DNA of 63,395 nt, counting the filler, from Sphacelaria rigidula (lineage: Eukaryota), in assembly GCA_964200075.2 (NCBI GenBank). It is 10 parts of 10 records of this genome, joined end to end, with 100 filler letters (N's around TTAATTAATTAA, not from the genome) between each part and the next. Parts side by side here need not be neighbours in the genome. Positions count along the whole stretch, not along the records: positions 57,147 to 63,395 come from CAXNAA020021237.1; 9 more parts are not named here. The stretch is one strand, 5' to 3'. The translations under genes and the position numbers were made by a program. Shown piece after piece: positions 5,187 through 63,395 of the stretch; position 1 is the stretch's first letter; each line of letters opens with the position of its first letter. The notes beneath the pieces are model-generated. The model had not been told where the DNA came from. It ran no database searches and saw only the letters and a list, made by a program, of their open reading frames with translations.

Positions 5187-6250
5187 GAACGTCGTATATA
5201 TATATATATATATATATGTGGTCAGCTGTCATTATAAGAGACTGTATCAGCGACAACAGCACGCAGGGTGCCACCACAAAGCTCCTCTAATGGGATCTTC
5301 TGATCACAGGAAAGTACAGGATCAACATATGGAAGCGCTCTAGCTTTGAAGTCTCGTGCGTAGTCTACAAGGAGGCGTTATGTCGGTGAGTGCATGTAGT
5401 CAAACCAAAAAACAAGCAAGGCCCCAAAATTTGAAAATGCCGGAGTTAGTATTAGGACGTACTTGAAGGGAGATGAGCAGCATGGAAAGGGATCACGGCA
5501 ACTGGCCAAATCTCGCAGCATGTTTTCGAACCGCTGCGGAACCGGGGCCTCGAGTACTGAGGATGTTTTTTTTCGGATTAGTTCGACACAATGGACCAGA
5601 GATACCAACCAAACCGATACAGCTGTCGAGTGCCCTGGCCACCGAGGAGAAGCCGGAATTGTGGCAGCATTGAGGGTCGCTGAAGCTCTTCAATACATTG
5701 TAGTGCTCGACGACGGGGCAGGCTTTGGGCGATAAACTCCAGCGTGCTCATGTTAATTCCTCTTCTAGAGTCGCAGACGTTACCGTACCAGTGCATTAAT
5801 GGTAATTTTTGCGGAACACCGGTACTTTCTACAAAAACTTGCGGTAATGAGAGTTTCCTGATCACTTCTAGCATCATAACGGTATTTTCTCGAAACTTTA
5901 CCGGCGTACGCGTGATATACCAGCTGCCTCTCGAATAACTTCTCCGGGTAACGCTTTTTCTGGACCCCCAAAAACCGTTACATGGGGTTGTTTAGTGAGT
6001 CACGAAGAGTTGTGGATTTCAAGAGGTTTGGTACGCGCCGCAAGACTTTCAGGGGTATTCCCCATTCCTGAGTCGTTTCTAGCACGTACATGCTGTCAAC
6101 TCCCCACACCCCTTGCTCCCTCTCGAAAGGGATGCGTGGCCAATGATCAAACGACTACGAGCTGGGCCAGCTGTAAAGAACATTTCACGAGAACACCACA
6201 ACTTCTCAAGTTTACCGAATCAGTGCGACTGGAGCATATCGCTGTGAACT

Positions 6251-6350: not shown

Positions 6351-7344
6351 ATGCGAAAACCCCCCGAAAAGAGGCCATTCGCAGAAAATGCTAGACTGAG
6401 GCCTGTGCAGTATAGGAGGGAAACACGATCCCGATCGCTATTATGAAGAATTGTTTACGTATTCGTTTATCTGAATATTTACTGTTTCGTCGCGGAAGAG
6501 CCGGAAAACTGTTTGTATTGGACCAAAAACGGTCAATAATGGCCTCCTGATAAACAGGGTATCTAGTCCGTATGGCCCCAAAAACACCAACTTGGACACT
6601 GCAGTTTGAGCGCGGCCTACGCTTTCCCCCTAAATCTACCGGCGCTAGCACTTCCCTGGAAAACTCAGGAACTACATCTACGAACTCTGAAGACTTTAGA
6701 TGCTGACTACTGTACTCTGAAGCATACGTTGACGGGTTCCTTATGCACTTATACTCTGCCGCTGTTGCGGCCAGCTGCGCCAGGACCCAAACCCATCATT
6801 TCGAGCGAGTCCAAGCAATGTTGTACGTGGTGATGGATGCTGCGAGATGTGGGCACAGGGATGATGCAACGGGTCAGTTTACCCCGACAGCATCCCGTTC
6901 TGATTTGAAAATGAAGAGCATTGTCCGCAGTTTGCCAACACTCGAGTAAATGATCCTGCACGGCAAAGTGGAAAGTAACAACGAAGAACATACCTCTCCC
7001 TTTTTTTCTTCATTTCCGCGTTTTCTGGGACACCATTGCACTCGCCAGACGTTTCTCACGGCCTTCAATCCCTCTGTTTCACGCTTTTACGCGGACCATG
7101 CATGAGCTTTCCCACACGCGCGGACACATGGAGGTGGATGCTTTGATAGAGTTTGTCTCTCCCACCTCACAGCAGTTTGCTTTGATTATTTTCCCCTCAT
7201 CATGCTTCAGAAGCTGGGTACGAGCTCGTTCTGCTGAGCGTGCCGTACGAACATTCGGAAAAATGCACCAAGTCAATCGGATCGGACGGTAAAGCTTGCG
7301 CCAACGTTCCTTCACAAATGAACACTGAGTGGTGAGGACAGGCA

Positions 7345-7640
7345 ACAAGGTTTTCGTGAGATAGAGAGTTGGGTGCGGATTGAAAGTGGCTTTGATCATT
7401 CGCTTTAACTTGGCCAATTTATCATTCCGTGTGCGCTTTTCTTCGTCTCACCACTGCCATGTGCTCACAGCTACACGCTGATATTGTACTCAGGGGTATC
7501 GAGGGCCTCAGTGGCAAGCTAGTACGGAGAGAACATTGGGCCTGGTCGAGGTGCGCTTCGGAACTGAAACGGCTCACTCACTAATTGACCGCTTTTCGCT
7601 CTCAATCATACCTTCAACTCTCAATTTCACGAAAACATTA
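7345..7640. mobile_element. MITE family C (~290 bp, TIR ACAAYGTTTTCGTGARAT.GAGAG)
   Basis: Inverted termini and shared core GGGCCTCAGTGGCAAGCTA. Other copies at 32263-32545 (opposite orientation) and 53671-53953. Confidence 0.7.
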
Positions 7641-12060: not shown

Positions 12061-15000
12061 AGATGTCGCCTCTCCATTGCGCCCTGGATCATTGCTCAAC
12101 TTTTGTGGAGACAATTACGTTATCTAAAGTGTGGCTGCCTAAGATATACTGCGTGGGAAGACAGCGCAGCGTCGGTGCACTTCAGGCCGCGGATCGCGGC
12201 GTGTGGGTGGATGGACCTTGCCTTGATTTTTGGATGATTTTCTCGTGAACAGATGGTGGACGTTAGTTCGTAGCATCATGGATTTCTTGCTACACATAGA
12301 ACGGTGGTGAAATTTGATGGCCTAAGTGGGAAGTTCATCCGCTCCCCTGACACTTTCTACGATAGCCCCCCCCCAAAACCCAGCTCAAACGTGTCACGAA
12401 AAAAATGTTCATACAGCGCTTAATGTTTGGGTTCAGGCTGCATGATGAGCCTCATATTGGCGACATTAGCTAGAACGAACCCAAGCGTGGGAATTCCCAG
12501 CTTCTCGTTGTGCTCGGCTTTTCCCATTTCGACTTACGTGAAGATTTTGCGCCCCAAATCCATCCACTTGGTGAGGGGCGTGCTATCCTAGAAAGTATCG
12601 NNNNNNNNNNNNNNNNNNNNNNNNNNNNNNNNNNNNNNNNNNNNTTAATTAATTAANNNNNNNNNNNNNNNNNNNNNNNNNNNNNNNNNNNNNNNNNNNN
12701 TTGCTGATGGGAAGATACTACTCGTACTGTACCGAGCTGTTCACGTGACCAGTGTGCGCTGTACATTGCCTATGCGCCACGCTAGCAACAGTTAGGTCAC
12801 CACCATAGGCATCTTTTTCCACTCTGCATGTCACAAAGGTCTCTACAAGTGTTTGATCTCTCATACACCCTCCTCAACTGGCATGTGGCAGGCCCTTATT
12901 CTGCTCGGGCACCCCGTTGGGGAAGGTCGGCGAAAATCAACGATGAATAACACCTCCTAAGTTCAAATTGGATCTATCTCTTATTCCCGCACCACCGCCC
13001 TTGCTGGCATGTGTGTGGCAGAGAGCAGTAGTAGCGGTGACGGGAACATTACCCTATTTTTCAACGACATGTCTTTCAGCGCACAGAGGCGCGTCCTGTC
13101 CGAAAGGAGAGGCAGAGAGGATTCGATCTTCGCGTTGGCGACAGGCAAGAAGAGACGAAGGAATCTCTCCGCACGTCGATGTTCTGGCACATGGAAAATG
13201 TGGCATATGCTGGTAACATCGATGATGCCAGTCTCTCGAGAGTTTGGTAATCGCCGAGCGAGGACACACAAAGGCCACGGGCGAGGAGCGTCCTCTCTGT
13301 CGTTGCTTCTCTCTCTGGTGATATCGTCACCGACACGCGTGTACGCCGCATTCGTTGGGTGCACCTAGCCACAGCTGCTCAACTGCTGCGGACATTCGGG
13401 GGGGAAGATGGCTTAGCTCGGTCGTAGGCGTTTCGCGTCTTCCCTGCACAAGAGAAATGTCACTTCAACCCCATATTTTGTATGAACCCCATTTTCTGAG
13501 ATCCACTGTTATATGTACAAATAGAGGGATTTCAGCATCTCTGCAGGCAATTTCCTCCCGCGGATGAAGTTTTCGGATCCCAGTCCGTTGAGCAATGTTT
13601 CTCGCCTACAGTAGTGGGCGGTCGAACTATTCATTTTGTGGCATATTGTTATTTCTTCGGAATTGGCGATTTTCTTGGGCTGTGTTCGCTCGCCACCGCT
13701 TATCACATTGGGGATCTGAAGATATTTGTATCCGCTCGACATTCCAAGAAAAAAAAATCATCTGTTCTCAATAGTGAGTGACTTACTGGCTGACCGGTCA
13801 TCGAGGGCCCTGCCACGTTTCAGCCCTGATTCTTACTTTTCGGTATTTTCAGTCGATCAAGCCTGTCCGTATCATGTTTATGAAAAAGTGTACGGTTTTA
13901 TCTTTTTGAAATTCTGCCTACTCATGTCACTAGAGCCGAAAAACGGTGTTTCACGGTCAATAACACCCTCCTGATTAGCAGGGTATTTACTCGTTTCGCC
14001 CGATAACACCAACTAGCACTGACTTGGGCACTGTGTTTTGAGGATGATCTGTTTATTGTACGACAATCCACCGACGCTAGCAATTTCGAGTTCTATCGCA
14101 GAGTAGTACCCGAGGGAAACCCCAAAGCCCCGCTGAATAGTTACACCGCCCACTTCTGTAGCTGTGAGAAAACCAACTTGATTCTCCGACTCTCTGGGCG
14201 TTGACTTTCGGGATGTCACCTTTCTGCCCTAATTCGGACTCTCCCGAATATGCGTGTACGAAAAATAGATCTGCCCAATGATGGTTGAAGCCACATGCAA
14301 CAGTGCCGTACTCTGTGTTCTTGAACATCAACCAATCGTAGGGAAACACAAGCAACGGTCACTGCCACAGCAGCTTTTGTCAGGATTTGTCTACCGAAAA
14401 ATATCCACACCTTGGACAATATATGGTCAATAGTTGTAACAGACAATGAAAGTACTGCATGAAGTATGGGCCTATTGCGACTGTTGTTGGCCTGCAATAG
14501 TTGCGATAGACCTATACTTTATGCAGTACACTTCTCGTCTATTGCATCTATTGACCGTATGTTGTCCAGGGTGTGGCAATTTCCACCGATAAACAACTGC
14601 ACCGCCCCAGTCGCAGTTGACGTAGACCGTAATAGGGGTAACTCTTTGAAATGGTAGCCGGGCTCGATGTTTTTTCCGTCCTCGTCGTTAGGTGGCATGA
14701 CCTTTGGTTCACTGCTGAAGCCATCATCTGAGACAAGGACAGCACGGACACATTCGCCAAGGTTTGGCTGTGGGTGACTGGTGCAGTAGGGGATCGCCGC
14801 TTGACAAATATAAACGATTCGCGGATTAGTTGGGAAAAGAGTGCAGTAGACTAGATCTATGTCGCAAGTCAAAACACCCTGTGCGACTGGAGAAGTATTC
14901 TTCACTACACCGTGGCTTTATTTCACAGCAGAAAACTTTTCGCTCAATGTAACGGCGATACTGTACACAGGAGAACAGAAATAGTCGACTGCGTGGTGGA

Positions 15001-15167: not shown

Positions 15168-16127
15168 AATATGTTCGTGAGGTTAGGAACGGATTTTTTT
15201 CGGAACGGAAGATTTTTCCGTGATTTACACCGAGACGGCCGAATCGTCGGAAACGACCGTCACCCCCCTAACAGCCGGTCATCAAAATTGAGGATGGAGC
15301 TTCTCATTGAGGATGATAACCCAGAAAATGAAAATCTTCGCATCCACACCGATTCTTCGAGATATGGTTCCATTCCTCCATCTACTGGTGGCGACTGACG
15401 ACTACCATACGCCGACACTTTCTACGATAGCCCACCCCTCCAAACCCAGCCCAAAACTGCCACGAAAAAAGTGATCATACAGCGCCTGATGTTTGGTTTC
15501 AGGCTGCATGAAGCGCCTCATATGGGCGACATTGGCGAAGACAAATCAAAGCGCGGGAATTCTCAGCCGCTCGTTGTGCTCGGCTGTTTTCATTTCCATT
15601 TACGTGTAGTTTTTGCCACCCCGAACCAGCAGCTTTGTTTTTCTTCGGGAGGGGGGGGGGGGTATCGTAGAAAGTGTCCGCCATACAATTCTGGATTCCG
15701 ACGACCGAAATTTGGGGGTCCTGGGTGAAAAAGAAAATGTTGGGAATTTATATGATCCGGCTTAATTAAATGGGTTATCATCCTCAATGAAAAGCTCCTT
15801 CCTCAATTTCGATGATCAGCTTTCCCCTGAAAGCCCGTGATCTGACGGGATTCATGGTGCAAAACGGTTTGAAATCGCCTGGGTGGGCCTGTGGAGAGGT
15901 ATGAGGGAAAATATGTCCAAAAAAGAAGAAAAACGTTTCCACATTTTTGGTAGTATCTCATCGAAGGCGTCACAAATTTCAAATCCGATTGTGCCAAAGT
16001 TCCCCTCAGATCACGGGCTTTCAAAGGGGTGGGGCCGTTTCGGACGATTCGACCGTCTTTCTTGGTGTAAATCACGAAAAACATCCCTTTGCGAAACACC
16101 TCCCGTTACTAATCTCACGAACATATC
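15168..16127. mobile_element. Foldback-like non-autonomous DNA element with long imperfect TIRs, hosting a nested family-B MITE
   Basis: 15168-15330 is inverted relative to 15770-16127, e.g. ATATGTTCGTGAGGTTAG vs CTAATCTCACGAACATAT and CATTGAGGATGATAACCCA vs TGGGTTATCATCCTCAATG. Confidence 0.6.
15414..15678. mobile_element. MITE family B (TIR GACACTTTCTACGATA + C/G run; 4-bp TSD)
   Basis: Perfect 16-bp TIR and TSD CGCC/CGCC. Further copies at 12349-12599, 44461-44695 and 63086-63321. Confidence 0.8.
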
Positions 16128-18560: not shown

Positions 18561-21500
18561 TTGAGTCATCCTACGATAGGGGGAAGGTATTATGGGCCAC
18601 TTCTTGCACGAAATTCCGAGGCAATCCGTCGTTGAAAGCAGCAACGGTTGTTCGAACGAGCTTGTCGTGGATTAATAAGGCTCATCCATACTGCCTGATA
18701 CCGTTTGAAACCAAATACAAACGTAACGCAAAAGTGGTAGGTCGTCTGACACACTTATGAGTCTCTTTTTTCGTGCAACCAAATCTCCCCCCCCCTCTAT
18801 GGTAGAATGACTCGATCGTAAATTTCGGATGGTCAATTCGCCGTTGTCCCATCGTAAATGTAAGCGAATGATACGTGATATTGCTCATATAACAGCCGAT
18901 TTCAAATTTTGGGGTTCATACAAAATATGGGGCTGAAGTGGCATGTCTCTNNNNNNNNNNNNNNNNNNNNNNNNNNNNNNNNNNNNNNNNNNNNTTAATT
19001 AATTAANNNNNNNNNNNNNNNNNNNNNNNNNNNNNNNNNNNNNNNNNNNNTTTGTCCCCCTCCGCCGACGGGGGGGAGGTGTAAAAGGTTGTTGGCCTTT
19101 TTGTTGAAGCGCCCAAGGCCCCCCCCCCCCCCCCCCTACTTGCAGCTTTCCCCTCCCCTCCCTTTGCCTCCTCCCCCTTCCTTCCTCGAGACGAGCCCGT
19201 ACTCTCTTGGGAGCAGCCCACCTCGCCCCTGGAATGTACCTCTCTTTTGTCCGCCCCATGGCCTTAGCCCTTTGAATCAGACTCGCGGTCGACAAATAGA
19301 AGGTTTACGTGCCCTGTAGTTTCTTCACGGTCGACAGATAGCAGGTTCATATGCCCTGTAATTTCTTCTTGTCGAGCAGTGAATAATGGCAATACCCTAG
19401 CCAGTCGAATTTCATCTTGAGGCCGATTACTCGAGACGTTTTCCTGCTTCATCACCGACGTTTTCGCAGGTCTTTTTCACGTACCCATAGTCCCGGATCA
19501 GTCGACCAAAAAGATATTCATGCGAACGTGGGCGTGTGCTCGCTTCAAGCTCGGGTATGCAGGAATATGTGCCCGGTTGCAGGATAGTCATGTGCGAAAG
19601 CATTCGCCTGGTTCGAAGACCGCCACATGAGAGCTTGCCATGCATGTGACAAAACCCTGCAATCCACCAGTGGCTTTTGATATCGATGTGTTCCTGTCGC
19701 AATTTTCTGGCTCCTAAACGATAGCCGTACACGAGCTACGAGCTGTGCTGCGGGAACGGCTCGGGCAGTGGCGACGGCATCACCCCAATTGTTAGCGCCT
19801 TCGACATGAAAGATGCTAAGCAGTATCTGGAGCTCCAGGTTTGCGATTCACACGAACTGTATCTGTTGCCCAGCGTGTGGAACGTCGAGAAGCGTGTTCC
19901 GGAAGATAGGGACCCTCGAGTTAGATCCGGCGATATATACCCGTCGTTGTAGGCAGCACCATGCGTGCTAGTTGTGGTGGGTATGATCACTTTTCGAAAC
20001 AGCGGTCGCTCTCGATGCTTGCGTTCGTTGTGCAGAGTGTGGCGATGGGCACAGCGCAGTTAGATGGTCGCAGTTAGATAGCCAATGAAAAATTCTCTCA
20101 AATTCATTTCTGCAGCATTAAATAGCGACCATATCGAGTAGTACAATCAAAAGATGCGAAGTAAGTGCACGTTCAAAGCCGGGTGTATTCGATTGGATAG
20201 AAAACGTAGACTGAAATGGACACCATCCAACGGACTAGCCTAATCGCGACTGCTGGAGTGACACCGAAACATGCATGTGCCTGTGTTTCTATTGGTTTTC
20301 GTCTGTCCACGTGCAGAAAGGGGTTCGATTGTCTGTACACGTGTATGCATTTAACTTACAAAGCTCCCCCTCACTTGACAGTAATCTGTCGTCTGCATCG
20401 ACCGGACAGGGGGTCTATCACTCGGCAGAATTCGGCGGGCCTTGGTACGGCAGCGACAGTGTCATCGACTCAGTGAGTGTGCAACTGTTTAGTTTATAGC
20501 TCTATGAAATGTGTGAATCCATTATTGCTCCCCCCCCAAAAGTCCGTCGACCGTAACCGCTTCTACCAGGTGGGCAAGCCTATGAGCTAACAGTTCTTCT
20601 CGGACCCGATATCTGTTTCAGTTTCCCGAATAAACCTGATAAGTATATTGCTGTGAAGTGCAGACCAACCTGCTGATGCGCCCTCTACCGCTTGAAAAAT
20701 ATTGGGGAAAAAAGTGTACGGCATATTCGTATAACCTCAACGACGGAACCAGATGGTGCAAAACAAAATATATCGGGGCTCTGTAGCTGGAGTCTGTCTC
20801 CTCATCCAATACTTGGACCATCGTGGCGTAGCGGTGTCACACAAGTAGTGGAAGGCCCCGCTCAAATCGTGGACTTTCGAGCCGAAATTTTACGAGGACC
20901 TTCTGCATGAAAGTTCAGAATTGCTCACGTTTGTAGCAAGATTTTATTTGATCTTTCATGGAGCTGTGGCGTTTTCTTTGTACCGACCTGAAATTAAAAA
21001 AAACACATCCGTCGGGATTCGAACCCACAAGCTGCCGCCATCGTTTCCTTGAAGGAAAAAGGAAACCTCACCCAACACTTCCTCCGCGAACGGGTTTGTG
21101 TGCCGATTACCCAGAGGCTCGACTAGACCGGCTCGCGGCAGTCGTATGGGGTAGGCGCCTCGAGCTGTTGAAAAGCTTTGCTGTTGGCGATGTCGGGGTC
21201 GAACCCACTCAAACCCCATATCAACGTGGGGCAGTGCACGCGCCACCCTACTCTTATGAGCTTCGGCCCCAACCTGCCGTCGTATAGGGGCGCCATATCT
21301 GCACCGTCATACATTGAACAAAAATGCACGGCCCAATTGCAGGGGTCTTGAGCTGAAATTTTCGCATATACGTTCTACACGTCAACACGCAATAACTGAC
21401 CGCAGTAGCCAAACATATGAATATGTTTTTGTTGAGTTAATGCACTTTGAATTTTCGTCAGAATCTTCAAGTGGCTCTGAGGTGGTGTTTTGTTTTTTTC

Positions 21501-30300: not shown

Positions 30301-33300
30301 CATAGTAGGTCATCTGTTGAATCGGCTTCAATGTCACTTGGAAAAATTATTCATGATCAAGATAGGTTGGTTGCCTTTGCGGCCAAGGGGTTTACCCTTT
30401 CAATGCGAGCCGTGGTCGAGTTGTAAATCGGTATCACTTTGACTCGAAAAAAGTGATCAAAAGCCAAGGGGTTTACCCTTGGATTCCAGCGGTGATCGGC
30501 TTGTGAATCGGCATTACTCCGACTGAAAAAAAAGGATATAATGATGCCGATTCAGTCAAAGCGTTCATGAGTTTTCCTGTGTATTTAAAACCTGAAGACT
30601 CGATAGCGTGGCCTGAACTGCAGCTGATGTGCTCGCTGGGTAGTTAGTACTGCATCAGTGGAGGTGTGGGGGCGGAGGGGGGAGGGGACGAGACCATGAA
30701 GGGATTAACTATGGCAAGTCTCGAACCTTCGACCTGCGCTATACATCAGTGAGTTAGTTGTCTTGCCCATGCAGCCATATATGACCAACCCATTGTGGCC
30801 AACAATTAGGGTTATTCGACGAACGCATTCCTGTATTTTCACCGGCTCTTTTTTAGCAGTGACTGAGGCATTCAACACCCGTGAACCCAAATCCTAACCC
30901 AAGCCCACACACCAGAGCTCGGACGGTGTGCTTGGTAAGATTCGAGGTTGATGGTGCAGGGATAGGTGCGAGATTGGCGTCCAAGCTAGACGGCACATTC
31001 GCCACCGCAGAACCGTCAGATCTGTGTGTGTATATATATATATATTATATATATATATCTAAGTCCACGGGTGCGTCGGTTCCTTTTTTTACGGTTCCAC
31101 TGGGGAGCAGAGGAAAGGCGAAAAAGGTCTTTGGAACAGTTCCGCCCGCCAATTTACCGCTGTACATGGGTATCTCAAACTCGAGGTTTCCTCGGTACAC
31201 CACACCCAGACCTGACAGTTTCCCGGTGGCGAATACACACCCAGACCCGCACGTACCGTGAATGATGCACACGTCGGACAGATTATCATCCGTCTGAAAA
31301 TTACTTCTTCGCAGTACAGTGATCCGGATCATGATCCGGATCATCTGACCCCACTTTTCCGTATTCGTTCCTTACCGTGCCGGACGCCGAGCACGCCGTG
31401 CAGCGCAAATGTTGTGCTTCGGTTTTTCTGATTCCGTAGTCACATATTTTTTGTTTTTAAACCAACGTATTCGAGACTCTTCCTTGATTAGTTGTTTTAG
31501 ATAGATCATGATCTGTCCAACGTGTGGAATGTTGTGATATTGCTACTGTGTACTGCCTACTATTGAACCCCCCCCCTGGTAAAGCCTGGTCCGGCGAGAA
31601 CCCGGCGTGCTCCGTCCCGGCTTTGTAGGGGCGGACCCCCGATGGGGTTGNNNNNNNNNNNNNNNNNNNNNNNNNNNNNNNNNNNNNNNNNNNNTTAATT
31701 AATTAANNNNNNNNNNNNNNNNNNNNNNNNNNNNNNNNNNNNNNNNNNNNACGACAAAAAAGAAAAAAAAAAAGGGGGGAAAAAAAAGGGGAGGAGGGGG
31801 GAGGAGAGACGCACTCAGCGCAAAACAAACTGCACGATCGTATCTCGTAAAATTTCGTGGTTCTAGAAAAAAAAATCAATGGGGTATCAATGAGAGGAAG
31901 CGTTTGCCTCATTCTATCATGGAAATCAATATGTTGGTTGTCGCATGAAAAAGCGTACAAAATTACCCCCCAGATCCGTTTTGTGTGATTTTTATTTTTT
32001 TCAGGAGAAGAGGACTCGTAGGCAAATACCAAGAGCTGTCCAAATTGGTGTTAGTTTTTCTCCTGAAAAAATCATGTCCCGAGAGAAAGGGAGCACTATT
32101 TTCATATTTTCGGACATGACAAAGAGGTGAGGAGGGAAAAGAAGATATCCACAAATGTCTCCGCCTGGAGACGAGGGGTTCAACGTTGTTCTTGAAATTC
32201 GGAACAACCAACCATCCTCACCCCGAGCAAAGTGTACCTACTACGTGGTGTGTGATACACTGACAATGTTTTCGTGAAATTGATTGAGAGTGAAAAGCGG
32301 TCAACGAGTGAATGAATCGTTTCAGTTCTGATATGCACCTCCGCGAGGCCCGATATTCTTTCTGTAGCAGCTTTCCACTGAGGCCCTTGATATCCCCGAG
32401 TAGGATATCGACGGGTAGCTGTCAGCATACGGTAGTCATGGAGACAAAGAAAATCACACACGGAATGAAAAATTGGCTACGTTAAAGCAAATGATCCAAG
32501 CCACTCTCAGTCCGCGCTCCGCTCTCAATCTCACGAAGACGTTGTTTACTCTAGAAAAAATGTATTACACGGACCACACAGTATTAGCAAACGGTGGCAG
32601 AGCACACCACAACTACACTGAAATATGACTACACATACCAACAGGGAGAAGGACCTGGAACATGGGAACGCGATCGCGATTCCCTCTTGTGGGGACGAGA
32701 AAAAAATATGTCGACTGCAAGTAAGTGTGAGAAATGGTGAGTATCTAAGGCACCGTCGAGGAGACTGGAGAACCCCAAAAGGTCGGAGAACCGAGTCCAG
32801 AGGTGGTTCATAATCACCTGCTGAATCTGTCGGACCGACCCTGGCAATTGTTGTTTACTTCGTAAATGTAAGCAACACGGTGTTCTACAACTTGATTGAG
32901 AAAAATATTCAGCGCTTATGAAGGTTCTCAACTTTCGTCCTAGAAAAAAAATCCTCCTGGCTTCGTAAAGTCCCGTGGCAAGCGGTTCATGTTTTTGTGT
33001 GGTATTAATGCATATATATATTATGTATGATTTACGCCATTGAAGAAGCAGGGTAAGTGCTAGGGTTTTGTTTTGTTCTGTTCTTCGTGATATTCCTGCC
33101 TTTTCCTTCCCATGTGTTCGCTCTTATATGTTCTCCCGTCTTTATTTATTCCGAAGAAGCGGTAATCGGTTGACTTTTTATCGCGCCTCTGTTGATTATA
33201 ATATTTTACCCTATTTGCAGTGCATTCGTCTGTTGTTTTAGAATTTTATCTGATTATCCACTGGTTTCTTCGCAGGTATTATCCCGTTGCTCGGGAGATC

Positions 33301-37930: not shown

Positions 37931-37999
37931 CAAGGGTCGGACAAATAATGATTCGTCGGTAAATTACTTGATTTTAGTATGATGAGTCGACTCGTGACG
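37931..37999. mobile_element. hAT-type MITE family A, copy 3 (cut by contig end)
   Basis: Starts CAAGGGTCGGACAAATAATGATTCGTC and aligns with the other copies up to the spacer. Confidence 0.75.
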
Positions 38000-42067: not shown

Positions 42068-43535
42068 TTTCCCCCGTCACATTTTATCATGACCGATCCC
42101 GCGTTGATTTTTTTCATTCAGGAGTTCACATTTTTTTAATCTGCGGCCGGTTACGGATGTTGGCGAACAAAGTGAAGCCTTCACGTGTACCGGAGTGCAC
42201 GCAGTAGTCAGTAGTTATATCCTCTGCATCTGCATCCACTGTCATGTACGTGCATCTGCATGTAGCCTCGAACCCTACAGTGAAGACGGGATAGTGCTGT
42301 GCTGTATTGGCAACGCACAGCCACCTATACTGTGCTCGCGAGTACAGCCCGTGCGTGTAACCTGGCACTACTGTATTGTCTGTGCTTGCAGAGTACAGCC
42401 TGCACTTGGACATGCAGGAGCACAAGGTTACAGCGCAAAAAGTGCCGGGGTTCGCGTCCAAGTCAGCTGAGTAATGCAAGAACGGGAAAACCTCAGTAAC
42501 CATCCTGGGTGAATCTGTCGTGTGCCTCCTTCTATTTGATGCGATGGCAACACAATCAAAATCACAAGACATTTCTTCAATGGCATTTGTTGGGAGCAGT
42601 GTCTCTCCTCCAAAAACCAGCTCGAAAAATACATGTGAGCACGCCACGTTTGGCAAACAAATGCACCTGAAATGTCTTGCTTTCATAATTGTATCGGTCC
42701 TAACTTTGAGAGTCTCTCGATGATGAACATCGGGGTCAAAATGGACAACCCCCCTTCGCATGACTCTGAACATCTATTGAAAATGATCGCACAATTTAAG
42801 GGAAACGGTAAGCACGTAGAAGACGAAACGAAAAAAATGTGAGTATACAGCAGCGACAAACGCATGGAGGACCGAAGAAGTATCGAAGTCCAGCCAGCAC
42901 GAGTCAATGTTGAGCACGACGGAAAACACCCAATTCGATCGTTCATCATCCGGTGGTGCCGTGGATGACATTTTGTTTCTCGAAATGATGCGCACAGTAC
43001 ATCCTGCACGATGTGGACTTTACGGTATAACAGTAGTACAATGCAGTGTCAGGGTGTTACAGCAGGGCACATGAGTATTCACAAGTACAGGCCGTGGATT
43101 TTGCGAACAGTACGACATTACAACAACAGGCTGTGCTTCACAAACACGGCACAGCTGTAGGCTGTACTTGTAACCTTGTGCTCCTGCATGTCCAAGTACA
43201 GGCTGTACTCTGCAAGCACAGACAATACAGTAGTGCCAGGTTACACGCACGGGCTGTACTCGCGAGCACAGTATAGGTGGCTGTGCATTGCCAATACAGC
43301 ACAGCACTATCCCGTCTTCCCTGTAGGGTTCGAGGCTACATGCAGATGCACGTACATGACAGTGGATGCCGATGCAGAGGATATGACTACTGACTACTGC
43401 GTGCACTCCGGTACACGTGAAGGCTTCACTTTGTTCGCCAACATCCGTAACGGGCCGCAGATTAAAAAAATGTGGACTCCTGAATTAAAAAAAATCAACG
43501 CGGGATCGGTCACGATACAATGTGACGGAGGGAAA
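42068..43535. mobile_element. ~1.47-kb element with ~360-bp near-identical terminal inverted repeats
   Basis: 42068-42432 is the reverse complement of ~43169-43535 with only scattered substitutions; ORF pairs 42126-/43176+ and 42195+/43020- mirror each other. Termini read TTCCC(T/C)CCGTCAC. Confidence 0.85.
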
Positions 43536-45945
43536 AAGCAGTGTTGTTCCTTTTCAATATGATGGAGGCATTGTACGGAAATTATAATTCATCATCCGCG
43601 GGGTCAATTGGAGACGGTCATACTCTAAGGCCTGACATATGTTGAGACTAGAGGGGCAGACGTCCTTGGAAGAGAGGTCTCCACATCAGCACGAATACCT
43701 GGCGCTACAGACCAGCTTTCGCGCGTTTGACAGCCAGATGGAAAATGATGCATATCACTACGAATGTAGAAAGCGCTTATTGCACGATATGTATCTGCGC
43801 AATTTAATACCCGAGGGAGTTGACACTGTGTGTTCCTAGTGCCAGTACAACGAATACCGTAGAACTGACTGTACGATGCGAGCCGCGCCTGGACAGGGGT
43901 AGAATACCCGCGGTCCATTCGTGAAAAAAAAATGCAAGTCGCACTCTGTCCTATTCTGAAACCAAGTGAAAACTCTGCACAGGGGTGATCACGCTTGCCA
44001 GGGAAAGGTGAATATCTTCACGTGGGAGCACACCACGGAAGAATATCTGATTGATTCTGATAGAAAAAAAACTACAGCAACTACCCCTTTCATTTCAGAC
44101 CATCGTGGTAACGCCCACGCCAAGTCTGGCACTGTGAGGGGGGAGACGTTGCCCCCTGCCCGAGCAGGTCCGCAGTGGTCCTTGACAAAGGACACCCATC
44201 TCCTTGGCTGCGTTGTGCGGTCGCGTCTTGCTCGGCACGGCGTGTAAAACTCAGGGGCATCTGCCTCTAACATATGGAGAACCTTCACTAGTGGTTACTT
44301 CCGGCCTTGGTGCCAGCCTCGACCAACAGGGGGCCGATGTTTTCAAGANNNNNNNNNNNNNNNNNNNNNNNNNNNNNNNNNNNNNNNNNNNNTTAATTAA
44401 TTAANNNNNNNNNNNNNNNNNNNNNNNNNNNNNNNNNNNNNNNNNNNNAAATGAGTACGCCCCCCCCCCCCAAAAGTGCATGTTTTTGGGGGGCAAAATC
44501 TCCACGTAAATCGAAATGGGAAAAACCGAGCACAACGAGCAGCTGGGGATTCCCACGCTTGGGTTCTTGCTCTAGCCAGTGTCGCCAATATGAAGCGCTT
44601 TATGCAGCCTGAACACAAACATCAGGCGCTGTATGGCCATTTTTTTAGTGACACTTATGGGCTGGTTTTTTGGGGGGGCTATCGTAGAAAGTGTCAAAGC
44701 ACCCCCTACATACCAAATACCACCCCCGGGTGGAATTGTTTCGGTTCCCAATGTTGTTACAAAGGGGTCGCATACATCGTCAACTACGACACTCGCAGAG
44801 GTTTGTTATCATCCCACCTATTCTGGACGCCAGTCTACACCTTTCGGCACTGTATGTGCGGGCGAATCAGCCGGGATCACACGGGAGGAAGGCAAACGCA
44901 CGAGCTTTTTTTTTTGCTTCTTGTTTTTTATTACTCCATCTTTCTTCTGCGGCGCTTGCCTTACCTTTATCGCGAGAGGTGTTCAGCGAGAGGCTGGCAA
45001 GTTTGGCTCCATGTAGTGCAAACATTTCAACCCATTCGGCATCATCATTATTTTCTGCCCACGCTGTATGTTACGTATGACACCCCGAGACAATGAGAGG
45101 ATCCCATATGGCTCTTCTCTGCGATAAGCAAGGCCGCTCCCGCACCGGCCATGAACAAGACTGCCATTTTGTGGAAAGAGTGCGAGGGATGAGATATGTC
45201 CGAGGACACACCTTTGGGGTGCTCTCGGCATAACAGACGAAGGGAGACGACGCCAATGTTCATACGCAACCACTGCCGCGAGGACGCAGTCATCTTCCAT
45301 TGGTCAAGAACAAAGCGACGCACAACGTTTGATGCACCCCTCGTCGCGTTAACCCTTCAAACAGTACGGCTGTGTAACTCCTCGAAGATTTGATGGGACG
45401 AAAAAGCCCTGTACTGATGCTGGGCTGTAAACATCTCACGATGGAACTGGAACATACACTTTGTCATGAAACTGGATGGCAACACCCTAAACAAAGCTCC
45501 GGATGATTCATAGTGAGGGTTACCCTATACCACAACTGGGTGGGAAGGAAAGTACGTGGAGTTAGGTTCACTAAGAAGTAAGGGGGAGAAAAAAAGGACA
45601 ATCGAGTTTTCGAGTGGTGGACAAAACAGGGCGCGAATATTTTCATTGATCAAAGGCAGCTTGGTCGGCAGCTATCGGGAAATCCGAAAAATTGGACCGA
45701 AGTTTGCCTATGGATACAAAGTGAGACCGAACGTGTATATGATATCGAACTCAGCAGCATGTCACGGGTACAAGGTTCCATACCGTATACAATTTCGACC
45801 TCAGTTCGTCCCAGTAGAAAACTCTCGCTCCCATTTTCCAGGATCACCTCATAGCTGATGACACCCACGGTCTTCAGTTTCATCAGGTCTCAATGTTATT
45901 GCTGGTCACGTGTTTTTCTCAATAGTGGAGTGAAAAAATACGCAC

Positions 45946-50202: not shown

Positions 50203-50438
50203 CAAGGGTCGGACAAATAATGATTTGTCAGGAAATCACTTGGTTTTAGTATCATGAGTCGACTCGTGAAGAATCAATCCCTAGGCTTTATTTCGGCGTT
50301 GCAACCCAGTCACACGCAGCCCAGACACGTGGAATGGTGCAAACGTTGCGTGGCTACCCCTNNNNNNNNNNGGGCAATCGGGCCGAAGAAAATCGTGAAT
50401 TTGGTGATTTTGAGTCGTGATGATTTGTCCTAACGGTG
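50203..50438. mobile_element. hAT-type MITE family A, copy 4
   Basis: Same termini; perfect 8-bp TSD AAAGGATG on both sides; small internal N run. Confidence 0.85.
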
Positions 50439-51793: not shown

Positions 51794-54700
51794 CATACAG
51801 TAGGGACGGTCCGCAAACCCTTGGCTGTTGAAGGGCCGCATGTATAAATACTGACACGTGGTGTTGTGTTCTTTCGTGTGCTTTCCGCTGGGGGAAACGG
51901 GGGCGTGGGGGAATCAGTGCTGGCGAAGGCGGAGGCGCGTCGAATTCGTACAGTGACGTTATCGGACATCGAAATGCGACGAGACTTTCAGGCGATCATC
52001 TCAGACTGGCGAGAGCGCGCCACCCAGTACCTCGCCACATACAGTGAGTTGCATTGGGGGTTCCAGTATGGTATAATTTTCTAAAGTGTGGGGTCCCAAC
52101 ACAGGGCGGTCGTCTCAAGTGTGGGCCTCCCACCCCATTGCGGATATCTAAAGCGCGCGGTCCCACAACAGTGCGGTCGTCTCAAGTGTGGCCCGCCTAC
52201 CTCAGTACGGTTATCCAAAGTGCAGGATCCCACAACAGTGCGATCCTCTGAAGTGCAGGCCCCACACCGCAGTGCGATTATCGAAGGTGCGGGGTTCCAC
52301 CATAGTGCGATCATCTGGAGTGCAGGGTTCCACCGCAGTGGGGTCATCTCAAGTGCGGGGTCCCACCGCAGTACGGTGGAAATCGCCCGTCAAAAGGTCT
52401 ATCCATTTTTACTATATTAGTATTTACCAAGGTATCGCACTGTACCAGTGTAGTGCATGCTGAGTTGGCGATCCACTGCACTATGCTAGGACCCTTACTG
52501 TATGTTGACCTGGCTCTTGTTGGGTGTTGACACATCTCAAGATGGTTATACGTCGTAGAGCGATATAGTGGAGGGTACCTGCTCGCTGCAATGGTAGGAG
52601 TCGTACATGAACGTTTTGGATTCGAATGGGAGGTAAGCCATGTTGTCCATGATGATGATGATGATGATGATGATATTCAAGTTGCCCATAATTTTGCTTT
52701 GTTGATTTCAAAATTTGACCAGCCAAAACCCTCATTTTTCTACACCGTGTTTGAATATGTATTTCCTCAAAACTATGCACAGGCAAGGCGAGTTATCCGC
52801 AGTGTGCCCTGCCCCCCCCTCTCCACCACCGACTCTCATATGTCCTTTTTTTCTTCTTTTCGCTTTTTTGGGTGCTAGATAAATCATGCTTCGTCTCGGA
52901 AGGGATGCGTGGTCAATGGTCAAACGACCAAGGCAAGCAACAATGAGGACCCCCCCCCCCCCCTACTCTCATATCCCTTTTTTTTCTCTCGTTTTTTTGG
53001 GGGCCAGATAACTCGCACTGGACGAAGGTTACCGTGTACCAGCACAGCAGTTCCTTCCGTGTGAAGGGTGTGACGTTTTCGAAGGGGGACCCGGTGGTGG
53101 TGAAGTCAAGGGTCACAGGGGAGGAGTTTCACGGAGAGATTACGGTGGTGAAGCCGAAAGCGGTGAGTACTGCTTTGACACTCTAGCGACTAGTTCTTTG
53201 ATCCACGAACTGACTACTTGATTCATTGATTCATTGATTAGTGGGAACCACCACATAGAGGGGGAAATTTTCACAAGTGTCCGCCGAGGAGTCACCTTTT
53301 GACATTGGCGACACCATGAGATAGTTCGTACGCTTTATAAATTGAAGATCCCGGGTTCAAATCTCGGCTCCCACCAAAAACGCTACTTGAAGTCAAGTCG
53401 GGACAAAAGAGGCGCGAGAATGTTCGAGGAAGAGACAACTGGTGGGAGAAGTCGAAGCACAATTCACTGACCCACCGGGAAATCTTTCAAGATTGTTGGG
53501 TAGGGGTCCCAAAACGTGTAAAACGCATGTGAAGAATGGTGTACATCCTCACCGCTAGCCGGCGAATTTGGTTTCTCTATAAGTATTTCTCATCAACAGA
53601 ACGAAGGAAGGTTCTGACAAAAGGGGCAGCTGATGTGGGTGCCACCACGTAGCCATGAGGGAAAATTCCCACAAAACGTTTTCGTGAGAGAGAGAGAGAG
53701 TAGAGCGCGGACTGAGAGTGGCTTTGGCCATTCGCTTCAACCTGGCCATTTTTTCATTCCGTGTGTGCCTTTCTTTGCCTCCATCACTATTATAACGTGT
53801 GCTTACAGCTTCACGTCGATATCCTTACATCAAGGGCCTCAGTGGCAAGCTACTACAGAAAGCGTATCGGGCCTCATGGAGGGGCATTCCGGCACTGAAA
53901 TGATTCATTCACCCATGGACCGCTTCTCACTCTCAATCTGACGAAAACGTTGTTACCAGTGTCCGTCGAGGAATCACATGTTGTTGTTGTGGTTGTTGTT
54001 GTGGTTGTGGCTGTGGTAATTGTTGTCGAGAGCTCAAGGTCGTTCGAGTGTTGGCGTGTACTCCAGCCGTTGAACTGGTGCATAGGTTTACCGTTGCCGA
54101 GGGAGCCCGAAGCGGGTGCGTCTGTCCGAGCAAGGGGCATGGCAGATTGGTGGTGAGCTGGGTAACTGTTGTTCCTCTTCGGGAGGCTGGTACGGGTCTC
54201 CCGGGGCTGACGCAAGTCGAAAATATATGGTGCAGGGAGGCTGTTGTATCTCAATGTACAGTAGTGGTCGGGTTAGGGTTGGGGTTAGCTTTTTCGCTGT
54301 ATACTAATAGTACGATACCCCCAGAGGGTTATGGGCTCTCGCCTCTCTGATACAGCAGAGTGCTCTGTCGATAGAGCTATGACGGCGCTTTGAGGATAGG
54401 ACATTGCTCACGAGAGCTGACAGAGAACATCCCAGTGCTTCGCACGTACACTGTTCACATGGAAAGCATTTGATGGATCTGTAGCAGTTCATATTGCCGA
54501 TCCATCTACAGATGGTGTAGCCCTCCGTGCGAGATTATGCCTAAGTCACCTGTTTACAGTTTGTGGTGTGTTGTACAGTCAAGCTCACATTCTGGGAGCT
54601 TGATGGCATCGTTGGCTTTGAGCTTGGGAGTAAACATAGCTCTCTGGCTCCTAAGGTACACAGACAGTTCAACAAAATCTCCTACAGCAGTCTAGCCGAC

Positions 54701-55846
54701 ACCCGAGGAACTTTCCTCGTGATCAGAAGTTTCCTATGGACAGGACCCGTGGGTCTTGTTCTAGGTAAAACGATGAGGACTGTTGGCTTCGCATAACGGG
54801 AACCCACATAACTAACCAGTTATGACGGCGTCGAGGGCTTCACGTCAAAACTAAAGAAGAAAAGATCTCAGATCATGCGACTTGTGTTTGCTGCTGACTA
54901 AGGCCAAGGCAACGTTCAATTGTTTTCGACTGCTTTGCTCTCATGTTCTCGTGACATTCGCTGTATAACCGCTGTCTTCGTGCTCCCAATTCAACGAGAA
55001 AGCAAAGAAAATCACGGTGAAAAATCCCCCGCCATGAACAGGCTTTTGTGGTTCGGGTTCCCGTTTGAAGTTTTCCATGATCTTGAAAAGGCTTTTGTGG
55101 TTCGGGATCGACACCCCGCGAAAAAAGAGCCAGTTTGACCGACTTTCGATGGCCAGAACACGCGCCACAGGTATCAGATGACACCCAAACCTGAACGGTA
55201 ATGTACCGCTGCGCCTTCTTCGTGTGCTGCAAAAAGAAGCGCGGGATAAAATGCCTTACTGCCGGAGAAAACTCTGCGAAAACGATGAAAAATGTGAAAT
55301 GATACATGCACCTGTAGACGTGCTCGGGTCACATTTCATACGTACCCGGGTCAGATTCTAGACTTGCTCGGGTCATCTTACAGGCGTACCCGAGGCGAAA
55401 TAACGGAAAGAGCAAACACTCGTACAAGCATCCATCTGCTGTTTAGATACACTTTGACTGCTACACAAAAACGCTGTCATTTTCTACGATGCCGCCGGAA
55501 AGCTTCTTGTCCCGAATTGACCCGCAATAATCGCCGATCGTCCCGCACAGCGAGTTCGACGGACTTCGTTCGCAGTTTTTGTTTTGTGTTTGCGAGCTCG
55601 TTTTCTCGCCGACCTGTTCCGCAACAAAACGCGGAATTACCCCGCTAACGACAATTGATTTGCTCGGTATTCCTTTTCCCTGTTTCTTCTTTTCTCTTTC
55701 CCCCCCCCCCCGCCGCCACCCCCGTGATTCGATTTGAGCAGATATTTTTGTCCCTGTACGGCGATGTAAAGACGCGAATTTTTGTGGACCACATCAGCAC
55801 GGGACGGCTCACCGTGGCTCGAGCAGACCTGAAAAGTGCCCAATGA
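51072..55846 (+). CDS. Sds3/BRMS1-like (Sin3-HDAC complex subunit) protein; last four exons 51072-51212, 51918-52043, 53008-53162, 55742-55846
   Basis: All four exons have AG/GT boundaries and splice in frame (phases 1,1,0) to ...KKRARL...TLSDIEMRRDFQAIISDWRERA...FRVKGVTFSKGDPVVVKSRVTGEEFHGEITVVKPKA|IFLSLYGDVKTRIFVDHISTGRLTV...*. This resembles the 'ExDIxEDxxxI' helix and C-terminal capped-Tudor-like domain of Sds3. Family assignment is from recalled similarity; exon structure is read directly. Confidence 0.7.
52083..52377. repeat. Intronic minisatellite, 9 degenerate units of 33-34 bp
   Basis: Consensus ~AAGTGCGGGGTCCCACCGCAGTGCGGTCRTCTC repeated head to tail. Confidence 0.85.
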
Positions 55847-58356
55847 CAATTTTCAAGAAGCACCAGAAGCAACAGCAGCAGCAGCAACAACACAGCACAA
55901 AGAGCTAATTTTAGAAGTTGGGGATCCACGGCGTGGCTCAGGAGAAATTGAAGAGAATTCTGAGGACAGGGGTGTTCCTTAGCTTGTAGTGTGGCAGTTG
56001 GGCAACAGCAAACCGTAGCAGCAACAGCAATACCCGATTTATTAGATCGCAATCGGAAGCGGATTGTTGGTTTTGGTCCATGCATGCATGCACTCATTGA
56101 TTTGATTGTTGGTACTGTGTGGTTATGTTTGGTATTCAATCGAAGCGGCGTACGACATATTCCGGTTGTATTCATCCAATCAAAATCGTTTGTGTCGGAG
56201 CAAAACGCGAACGCAAAAACAAAGAAAAAAAAAATATATATATATATATTTTTAACGGTAAAACGTCAAGTTTCGTCTTGTAAGGCCGACATGCGTTTTT
56301 TGGTTTCTGTTATTCTCAATTTCACCAAGAAAGTATTCGAATTATACACATCCTCCTCCCCTCCTTTATATCCGCATGTACACGACAAGGAGAATTTCGC
56401 TCGAGAGAAAAAGGGAGAGGGGGAAATGGGTAAGGAAGAATAGGGAGGAAAGAGAGAGGAAAGAGGCAAAGACTAGGAATCAATGGGTGACAGCAAGTCT
56501 GAAGCACGTAGAACACGACAAAAAAAACGAAGAGAGTGTCAAACCAAGCATATTAAACCGGATAAATATCTTGGGCTTTTTCATCAGGAGGACCCTATTT
56601 TTGGAACATATTACTTGGACGCCTTGCGACCTTCATGCTGCGGGTGCGGTGCGGTTGGGGCGGTGCAGGCAAGCCTCGTCAAGCTACGGTGTCCTCGCCT
56701 TCCGTGCAGTTCGCAGCTGAGCATCCGTGGTGGTTACTGTTAAGGGGTATGATTTGTCACACGTGAGGCAGGTGAAAGATGAAGAAATGTCCAGGCAAAG
56801 CTTGGATTTCTCTTGTGCATGCAGTTGAATTTAATCAGGAAACTGTGTGCCAGTCTCGCCTGTTTTGCCATTCTTCTTATTTTTGTGTCTGCGTGCGTCT
56901 CTCTGGTGCTGGTTGATGGAAGCCAACCATGGAACCACTTCCGGGGGGTGTGTCTCCTCACGTTCGGGCGGCAAGCACACGCAACGAAAGTATGCATCAG
57001 GGGGCGGGGGGTGGGGGAAGGCGTGTACTCATGATGTTGCATTCCGNNNNNNNNNNNNNNNNNNNNNNNNNNNNNNNNNNNNNNNNNNNNTTAATTAATT
57101 AANNNNNNNNNNNNNNNNNNNNNNNNNNNNNNNNNNNNNNNNNNNNTCCGTCCCGGCTTTGCAGGGATGCGAGGTCAATGGTCTCATGACTATGGCATGC
57201 ATGATCGTGAGTACACCCCCTATCGTAGCATCACTCGAGGAAGCATCGATAATCTGTTGATGGGCAGCAAGTCAAAGCCGTATGAATGTCCCCAAATATG
57301 GTTTGTGTCGCAAATATACACGCGCACGTCTGTGTGGACATACCAACGACCAAGTATCATTCACAAGAAACTTTCTTGGGAAAAACATTGGCGGAGGAAG
57401 GGACAGGGATATAATGTCCATGCTGTGTCCGTTGACTTACTCTAGTTCTACCTGCGTTGACTGCAACCCGCAGCAAAAACGTTCGTGAACAATGAATCGA
57501 CCTGCATGTTGCCCGCTCGAATCGGATGCTCACGACTTGCCACCGGAAACAGATATGCTTTCGTACCCCCTCCCCCCCCCTCCCTCAACGAATAAATGCA
57601 CACTCCCGACGGGTCACACGCGCCGCACTTGACTACAAGATAATATTTACCACGAAAGCGATCATTCCTTGATGCGAGAGCATCCAGAGACATTCGCGTA
57701 GCAAACATATGTCACGAGCATCAACAATACAACAAAGGGTAGCAATGAAAAATACAAAAAGTGCACATCAGAACAACGTGATGAACCTACACATTTTCCC
57801 CACAGAGCGCAAATTTACGGCACATCGACTGTACCAAGAGAACAAGCAAATACGTTCAATCCTCTATCGATGCTATTTATTTTAGACGCCAGTCAAAGCT
57901 GGTGAGGAACCCCGTCCGCACGTGTCACTGTTCAAGTGTAACTCTCTAGCGTAGTCACTAAAACGAAGTCATGTCCTGGATAATTGAAGCTCTTCAAAGC
58001 ATTCAAGTCTCACCAGCATTTTTTGCACTATCAACAAGTTCTAGTAGAGAGACTTGTATTGGTGAGAAGTTCGAATGGCTCGCGAACAGTATCGGAAATA
58101 ATTGAGCAGAGGGAAAGAAGGATACGTTACGTGCTGTTCTGCACGCCAACTTCGATTGCTGTCGTCGTCGCGACCAGAAGCGCGGCCTTGCTAGGTAATC
58201 ATATTCGTTGAACCTGATCTCAGCGATCCATAAATGTTCGCAAATCAGCAATTACGAGGCGTTGCCTGAACACCCGAACCATTGAAATCATGGCCATAGT
58301 TTCCACCGACGACGGCTGATGCTTCCCAACCACAACCAAACCCGACAACATCGTGG

Positions 58357-61657: not shown

Positions 61658-61889
61658 CTGCGAGTGCACAACCGACGTCGAAAGGGGGTAAGAAGGGTAC
61701 TTCTGAGCGCACCAGCGCTACTGCTTCGTGTACATTGTGGGCGACGGTGGCCGAGGCACTTCATAGATGGCGTTACAGGTGCAGTATCGAATCTGGCGCA
61801 ATCGTGCTGCGCGCAACGGTTATTGAAATACCTAACGACGCGATCGGCGCGAGGTTGCAGTAGGCCTTCGGGCTAAGATATGTGTAATG

Positions 61890-62039
61890 TTTTTGTGTAA
61901 TGTATGGGAGAAACGTAATGAGCACCGGAATGTTGGAGGTGTATCCAATAGGAGTAGGAACGGTGCTCCGTCTCGAAAGGGAGTCGTCGTCTATATGATC
62001 AAACGACTAAGGCAAGCAACAAGTGAGTACCCCCCCCCC
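61890..62039 (+). mobile_element. 5'-truncated 3' end of a probable non-LTR retrotransposon ending TGAGTAC + poly(C) (longest copy)
   Basis: Decayed frame FLCNVWEKRNEHRNVGGVSNRSRNGAPSRKG...QTTKASNK*. Copies with the same 3' end and variable 5' ends at 52887-52949(+), 63322-63387(-), 44449-44459(+), 57147-57220(+), 57001-57046(-) and 50798-50826(+); fragments at 6114-6157 and 31607-31630. Confidence 0.65.
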
Positions 62040-63395
62040 GCCCCGGCATAATACGGAGGCGAGTGAAGCGTTCGCAACAACTACACATCCCTTCAAAAGT
62101 GCAATTCCGATTCAAGGCCGAAATGAATACAATCAAGTTATTACACCCCAGCACAGAGCACTGTGCGGGTCGCTCAAACTTTCATCAACCTCTAATCCGG
62201 CGCACGCGTGAAGCTCGAACTGAACGCCCTTTGTATCTCTGCTTAGGGTCCAGACACGACCATCGGCAGCATTCCCCATATAAACCTACTTACAATAAAG
62301 ACAGTGGGAACCATCTGAGATGGAGACGTGTATGTATTGCATCGTCGGAAAAAAAGCACCACACAGAAGCGTACAGGACCCCCCAAGGGAATTCTGGGGG
62401 AAAACATTATCGTATTCTAAATGGGGAAGGGCACTCCGTACTAGTCGCCATGTCTACGTGCCGAAGACATGCACAGTATTGGCGATACATTGGTCAGAAG
62501 CGGTTGGACCAAGGGAAAACATAGTATTGGGGCACAGTCTCGGATTCGCTGCACATACGCACCCCGAAGAAAATTTCCAGCGAAAGGGGAGCGAAACGGT
62601 TACATCACCGCTGGCTGGTATGGTTGCCCTGAAACATCTGACATGAGACCACGAAAGGCCTTGGTACTGAAGCCTGTACTGTGCCAGGAGAGACGTTTGA
62701 AGACTAGACACGATTCCTCGGGTCACGGCGTTAGTTGGGGGATCGCTTCGAGTGAAGTTTTTTTCTGCCAACGAGTGCCACCACGATGGTGGATGGGTTC
62801 GTGGAATAATGTTCGCTGTTGACCGATTTCTCCCCTCAGAACTCCCCAGTGTAGGCTTCCACCGTTCTCAGAAAGTGAGTGCGGATCGCTTTAGCAATCG
62901 GTTGCCCGTGATGACTGCGTTTTCTCTTTGACTAGCCATCCTCGCGTCAAAATCCATCTGATCTTTTGCGGAGACTTTATCTCTTTTGTCCGTATCAAGT
63001 GGTGGTCGCACCCTAACTTGGTCTTCTTCCCATCTTCGGTCCGCTGCTGACCATCGACCGGCACTCGACGATCAAAGTACTATTTGACACTTTCTACCAT
63101 AGCCCCCCCCCCCCCCCCAAATGCATCGTTTTGAGAGACAAAATCTTCACGTAGATCGAAATGGGAAAGGCCGAGACAACGAGCAGCTGGGAATTCCCAC
63201 GTTTTGGTTCGTTTTAGCCAATGTCGCCAATATAAGGCGCTTCATGCAGCCTGAACCCAAACATTAGGTGCTGTATGGCCATTTTTTTCGTGACACTTTT
63301 GGGCTGGTTTTTTGGGGGGGGCGTACTCATTTGTTGCTTGCCTTAGTCGTTTGACCATTGACCACGCATCCCTTTCGAGACGGAGCTGTTTTCTT

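Follow-up and report, generated by a model that had tools for sequence, protein, structure and literature searches.

A decayed non-LTR retrotransposon of Sphacelaria rigidula with C-runs, mainly target sequence, at its 3' end

The window analysed here, 63,395 nt of Sphacelaria rigidula DNA, consists of ten pieces of contigs, from C21228 at the start to C21237 at the end, with N spacers in between. It carries copies of a high-copy, now decayed non-LTR retrotransposon. The C-run that follows its 3' end is mainly target sequence, lengthened in a minority of insertions. The element is likely an RTEX-type APE-RT LINE whose target-primed reverse transcription relies on C/G where L1 relies on A/T.

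Structure and copies of the element

The 244-Mb genome was searched with the 3' end, which gave 2378 DNA candidates (40 scored) and 11162 protein candidates (150 scored). The loci sampled are the best matches and 60 further rows chosen by position; because sampling followed the best 3'-end matches, the sample leans to well-preserved 3' ends. Nine profile matches without a 3' anchor were left out of the copy set. RVT_1 (PF00078) was recognized in two genomic copies with E values of 4e-28 and 7e-21, and Exo_endo_phos (PF03372) in copy L067, N-terminal to the RT (E 6e-08), and in the metagenome relative L226 (E 7e-13). The original prediction of a non-LTR retrotransposon is confirmed by these domains; the endonuclease is of APE type, and RLE is rejected. 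With one fixed 3' end, variable 5' truncation, RT and APE present, and no LTR or TIR, an LTR or TIR element is rejected as well.

The single ORF encodes an N-terminal extension, APE, RT, and a C-x-C..H..C motif, and its stop lies about 5 nt before the terminus. Copies from about 10 nt to more than 4.6 kb have the fixed end GAGTAC-G/A in common and are variably truncated at the 5' side. Walking upstream gave about 4.7 kb of shared sequence and a 5' array of 63-bp units (19 units in L066 at 6215-7446; also in L067, L070, and L074), which may be a repeated promoter. L226 has an intact ORF of 1412 aa with APE and RT and ends with the family-1 peptide and TGA-GTACG-C(n). No separate sense-strand ORF of at least 80 aa, and no ORF1, was found upstream on its contig, which is without the extreme 5' end. 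The S. rigidula copies examined have broken ORFs, colinear with the single EN-RT ORF. RT matches in this genome besides the query are 52-78% identical, most with stops, and the 3' ends have a median pairwise identity of 87% and a maximum of 94% among copies that are the best matches to the 3'-end queries; the family therefore looks inactive in S. rigidula.

About seven related copies had been predicted on the window. Seven pieces are present, but BLAST and profile searches showed that two families had been merged, family 1 with five members and family 2 with two (Table 1). The shared 3' end followed by a C-run holds for six of the seven (GAGTAC or a variant) and fails for the fragment at 6114-6160. 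The copy first placed at 61890 starts about 20 nt earlier; it matches an nhmmer profile built from 11 genomic copies (E 4e-46), and the 40 genome matches scored among the 2378 DNA candidates have 86-100% identity. It has neither a visible duplication nor a C-run at its 5' junction. Its stop codon (TGA, 62024-62026) lies as close to the C-run as had been described, and TGA occupies this position in 139 of 168 copies genome-wide, so the ORF reaches almost to the element end with essentially no 3' UTR. The mini-copy at 52887-52949 was correctly seen to have a duplicated C-run, but the duplication is larger, about 70 bp: 52814-52885 is repeated at 52950-53014, with the C-run at its start. This far exceeds the 12-19 bp of other copies.

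Family 2 ends in ...ATCATGAGTAC-A-C(n) (57147-57214 on the plus and 57025-57046 on the minus strand), and its last ~55 nt are common to both families. It is at least about 560 nt long (L247) and frequently starts at GAGCCTGGTCC (57147-57214, 31577-31650; L030, L106, L247). Family 2 is probably a non-autonomous passenger on the 3' signal of family 1.

Table 1. Coordinates of the annotated features on the window
Position	Strand	Feature	Support
6114..6160	+	Family-1 fragment without its 3' end or a following C-run; begins at the truncation hotspot, behind a C-rich patch	
18745..18813	+	Terminus of the second MITE-like family, C9 at 18787-18795; empty paralogue of the filled L139 site	
31568..31650	+	C9 run, then truncated family-2 5' junction (family-2 part 31577-31650)	
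44449..44471	+	Last 11 nt of a family-1 copy (44449-44459, cut by contig edge) and C12, at left TIR of another MITE B	
52812..53014	+	Family-1 mini-copy (52887-52949) flanked by two copies of the ~70-bp duplication	
56999..57046	-	Family-2 3' end (57025-57046, cut by contig edge) and C-rich tract	
57147..57220	+	Family-2 3' end (57147-57214; stem-loop as in family 1, GAGTAC-A) and C5	
61870..62029	+	Family-1 LINE, 5'-truncated, 160 nt, ORF end, TGA and GTA	nhmmer E 4e-46
61989..62013	+	3' stem-loop of two stacked helices inside coding sequence	8 sequences
62030..62039	+	C10 run directly 3' of the copy at 61870-62029	
63086..63321	.	MITE family B, TIR GACACTTTCTACGATAG and C-run, C16 at 63103-63118, G8 at 63314-63321	
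63322..63387	-	Family-1 3' end, ~65 nt, near contig end, at the G-run of MITE right TIR	

C-runs at the insertion sites

Across 165 copies, C accounts for 85-90% of the bases at positions 3-7 after GAGTA, and the composition reaches background level by about 25 nt. A run of at least four C's follows 154 of 162 3' ends; the tract has a median of 13 C (n = 158), with three or fewer in 8/158. AAAA was found at none of the 162 junctions, which agrees with the predicted lack of a poly(A) tail. On this count, and with no ORF1 in L226, membership of the L1 clade is rejected.

As the 5' truncation points vary, C's in front of them cannot belong to the element. C4 or longer was present within 25 nt of the 5' junction, on the same strand, in 61/95 cases, against 7% in two backgrounds, and G4 or longer at only 6/95. 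These 95 remain from 122 usable 5' junctions after 27 were set aside as possibly tandem by a loose filter that removed some wrongly, and many of those removed also have C-runs. Target site duplications (TSDs) comprising C-run and unique flank were identified in 13/125 copies (shuffled mean 0.8, maximum 4), most of 12-19 bp; a clear unique TSD is thus seen in only about 10% of copies, with further cases at known empty sites. The duplications measure 0 to about 19 bp (one ~70 bp) and start inside the C-run. An unstructured scan gave a weak signal (16/122 at score 7, where the null is 3.7%) and a long-range scan 7/75 against 2.3 expected.

Runs were present in four sets of empty paralogues, as expected of a target. 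For a 4-C site in the antisense strand of the LINE itself, 19 empty paralogues carry the run. For a C4TC4 site there are 186; by hand count, 89 of the 100 listed are 9 nt long, and 9 of the 100 are lengthened. Two MITE families add 26 parsed MITE-B copies and about 30 of the second family with empty C-runs. Contigs of four public runs from four organisms have C-run junctions on both sides. At insertions into C-rich patches, the C's are always on the sense strand of the element. An element-encoded tail with random insertion, or C-runs as assembly artefacts, would suit the many contigs that end in C-runs, and poly(G) errors do arise in some short-read chemistries. The strand-specific enrichment of C upstream of variable truncation points, the empty paralogues with runs, and identical junctions in independent data sets make this extremely improbable. 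The predicted insertion into poly(C) tracts holds as a preference for C-rich targets, but short patches (CCCC) suffice, and targeting is not strict. A strictly sequence-specific LINE is rejected, since 34/95 5' junctions, that of the 61870-62029 copy among them, lack C4 and targets range from CCCC to long runs.

The number of C's added at insertion was counted at the two defined sites, with insertions found by pattern search with exact flanks and gaps of at most 18-20 nt, which misses longer tails. The 3' tracts are 2, 3, 3, 5, and 11 nt at the 4-C site (2 nt in L056), and 3, 3, 4, 6, 6, 9, 10, 13, 14, and 16 nt at the 9-nt site, where one of 11 pattern matches (L258) is not the element and was excluded. 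Nine of the 15 insertions hold no more C's than the target offered, and six exceed it, one of these (14 nt) also with a long run upstream. Gain is occasional, then, and amounts to 1-10 C; all 15 junctions retain at least two C's after the purine. Of 15 TSD pairs, 10 have the longer run downstream, two have runs of equal length, and three have the longer run upstream (p 0.02, small numbers). Part of the gain may be homopolymer slippage after insertion, as 9 of 100 listed empty sites are lengthened too. The earlier reading of the C-run as target and not tail is too absolute, given the six insertions that exceed their target; the run is mostly target, with C's added in a minority.

On the earlier, pure-target view, the RNA would end at GAGUAC-G/A without C's, the endonuclease would cut in G-runs, priming would need no pairing, and all C's would come from the target or from later slippage. 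The nine junctions within the target's C's, several with only 2-3, are as this would have it, as are L139, which splits a 10-C run without gain, and the empty runs that sometimes expand too. It accounts poorly for 11 C's at the 4-C site where the upstream duplicate is still short (L059 = L245), and for tracts of 13 against 8 in L257 and 16 against 9 in L054 = L255. Slippage should favour neither side, whereas the downstream run is the longer one in 10 of 15 pairs; this explanation is on balance unlikely.

Stem-loop, truncation hotspot and mode of insertion

The two-helix stem-loop in the last part of the ORF is paired in 62 of 64 cells (97%) over the aligned sequences, and two pairs have double-sided changes, in six cells. 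None of 500 shuffles scored as high, although the structure was hand-drawn from the same eight related sequences, which biases these controls in its favour. Among close sequences, RNAalifold detected no double-sided changes. GUGCUC/GAGUAC is predicted as a closing stem; it was not recovered by RNAalifold and has no covariation support. Folding z-scores are weak (+0.4 to -1.6). A tRNA-like or mascRNA-like 3' element was considered and rejected, as inspection showed no T-loop, an 11-nt unpaired linker precedes the 3' strand, and Rfam gave no match at E up to 5.

In the metagenome relatives L228, L229, and L233 (32-41% protein identity), the ORF also runs to the end and GCG(A/T)GGYCRATGG is kept, but the ends, one copy each, adjoin ATT- or TTTA-type repeats and not C-runs. 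Proteins P0010-P0031 and these three relatives are about 50% identical over the RT, on contigs of up to 3 Mb, and horizontal transfer among relatives of this type is possible. They keep a GCVVNG-like C-terminal peptide, a conservation probably due to the coding sequence also forming the RNA stem-loop.

According to the favoured reading, target-primed reverse transcription at C/G, the protein would recognize its own RNA by the stem-loop of the final ~65 nt, which overlap the ORF, and the endonuclease would nick the G-rich strand inside the G-run. The G-ended primer would pair with at least two C's after GAGUAC-G/A in the RNA. These C's are most simply taken as read through from the genomic C-run of the donor copy, and extra ones may come from the RNA run or from RT slippage. 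The constant presence of at least two C's, with C added in a minority, fits priming of a G-ended nick on RNA C's. Each insertion would leave a new C-run, which explains tandem and nested copies. Insertion into C-runs may also explain the many nested repeats of S. rigidula and its contig breaks at C-runs. For RTE, L2, and CR1, PMC6007223 proposes that RNA and target pair at the 3' junction.

A hotspot of 5' truncation lies about 64 nt from the end, at the 5' arm of the predicted closing stem. Twenty of 136 copies are 60-69 nt long, and none 55-59 or 70-99 nt, the short copies being incidental finds. The best-supported 5' loose ends fall on the same five positions at the hotspot in all four public runs. 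The hotspot also marks where a purine-rich strand has its first C-rich patch. Microhomology with target C's can explain some hotspot junctions, those that start with G or T excepted.

These data bear on another explanation, by which the RNA is cut just behind the terminal stem and receives CC or oligo(C) from a nucleotidyltransferase of the host, the processed ~65-nt 3' RNA being mobile too. The predicted stem followed by one purine and then C's, the sharp 60-69 nt class, the five recurrent loose ends, and the hotspot junctions without C microhomology would all be accounted for. Against it, neither T-arm nor cloverleaf is seen by inspection or in Rfam, the terminal stem lacks covariation, RNAalifold recovery, and convincing z-scores, the 3' composition of the 165 copies has no CCA periodicity, and microhomology with the C-rich patch may account for part of the hotspot. 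Host C-tailing is accordingly regarded as very doubtful. A broader scenario, in which a brown-algal lineage switched both tail and endonuclease preference from the AT-rich repeats of its distant relatives to C/G, its RNA being cut and C-tailed by the host and its structured last ~65 nt retrotransposed as a discrete mini-RNA, seems quite unlikely. If true, it would make the element one that moves on RNA with a genuine oligo(C) tail and whose ORF contains a minimal mobile unit.

The literature searched gave no earlier description of a covarying 3' stem-loop inside the ORF common to AT-ending distant relatives, or of a truncation hotspot ~64 nt from the end. As a separate observation, L246, L249, and L252 are insertions of 10-17 nt with duplications and a doubled GTAC end, one with an inverted copy of its own target.

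Related elements and other repeats

LINE biology is centred on A/T, with poly(A) or AT-rich tails and T-rich nicks. In mammalian L1, the sense strand carries the run, the TSD starts within it, and a homopolymer complementary to it serves as primer. The S. rigidula element is alike in these three features with the bases swapped to C/G; L1 has A/T, an ORF1, a 3' UTR, and host-added poly(A), and needs no 3' stem-loop. Waldo, Mino, Kibi, Koshi, and SART/TRAS, from other clades, have an APE-guided preference for other simple repeats. Unlike in these, four C's suffice here, and about one-third of 5' junctions have no C4. Since relatives of 32-41% identity have AT-rich repeats at their ends despite a conserved 3' stem-loop, a natural C/G LINE is a clean test of whether the tail must match the target and of the endonuclease loop that determines base preference.

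Novelty, implied by the original prediction, is not upheld. In the 2025 table of Ectocarpus elements (PMC12477816, Supplementary Material 3), RTEX-1_Ec32 is listed with a single EN-RT ORF, "(C)n 3'", and a "C-rich" TSD, and RTEX-2_Ec32 with "(C)n termini/TSD"; both are 5.5-5.9 kb long. RTEX-N1/N2 are given there as non-autonomous, with the last 60-100 bp common with RTEX-1/-2, and occurring in tandem; the table gives (CAA)n or (CA)n ends for its remaining LINEs. The terms "C-rich" and "insertion preference" are absent from the main-text portions covered, and the passages searched hold no empty-site test, mechanism, stem-loop, or truncation hotspot. The basic pattern is already in that table, so what the present data add is the evidence on targets, together with the stem-loop and the hotspot, and not the discovery of the kind. 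Besides PMC12477816, no further report of a poly(C)-targeting LINE was found in a search whose scope lay outside subscription journals, Repbase Reports, and bioRxiv supplements.

The element resembles RTEX-1/-2 in its single EN-RT ORF, (C)n 3' end, and C-rich TSD, and differs in that its copies are older, broken, and in another genome. Family 2 resembles RTEX-N1_Ec32 by the description of the latter. Ectocarpus-labelled proteins, 43-66% identical over the RT piece, are the only named close homologues. The peptide NVGGVSxRSRNGAPSRKG, given in the prediction as a brown-algal LINE ORF2 C-terminus, has a near-identical counterpart in P0054 (labelled Ectocarpus sp. CCAP 1310/34), and P0006, with a sister C-terminus, matches L230 at 72-76%; both Ectocarpus protein lineages, P0054 (family 1) and P0006 (L230), thus match families ending in C-runs. 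Compared by description and related proteins, the element very probably belongs to the Ectocarpus RTEX-1/-2 lineage. The putative RTEX name follows the Ectocarpus annotation.

RTE-clade LINEs and Au-like SINEs (PMC6007223) and green-algal RTEX (PMC3747384) are likewise APE-RT based and have a repeat tail in place of poly(A). These tails consist of units such as (GTT)n, (CAA)n, (CA)n, or (CCAT)n, unlike the C homopolymer here, and the target signature is a T-stretch ten bases upstream. The first TSD base matches the tail, and tail-target pairing is proposed. In its conserved 3' stem-loop with compensatory changes, the present element is like stringent RTE/L2 elements, and the stem-loop may be required for retrotransposition.

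MITE family B has 3645 genome candidates; on the window it occurs at 12348-12599, 15414-15678, 44460-44696, and 63086-63321, and elsewhere in L196-L224. Its 17-bp TIRs start with GACAC and are followed by the C/G runs. Of 29 other copies, 26 could be parsed; as predicted, each of these has runs of 7-15 C and 8-13 G within its TIRs, and 20 of the 26 have a perfect 4-bp TSD, a length reminiscent of Sola. The LINE adjoins the left run in one copy (44449-44471, plus strand) and the right run in another (63314-63387, minus strand), just as described, and at 63086-63321 the LINE has taken the place of the outer right TIR. In the second MITE-like family (18745-18813; L166-L194), the terminus is a C-run followed by TATCGTAGGATGACTC. 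A core of CTACGATAG plus run is common to both families, and both supply LINE targets.

An inverted repeat of 367 bp and 97% identity (42068-42432 and 43169-43535, ~740 bp apart) is possibly a young TIR element. Self-BLAST revealed further interspersed repeat families on the window: at 1850-2105, 4928-5186, 50203-50438, and 37931-37997; at 4029-4494 and 54881-55308; and at 7344-7608, 32257-32546, and 53675-53962.
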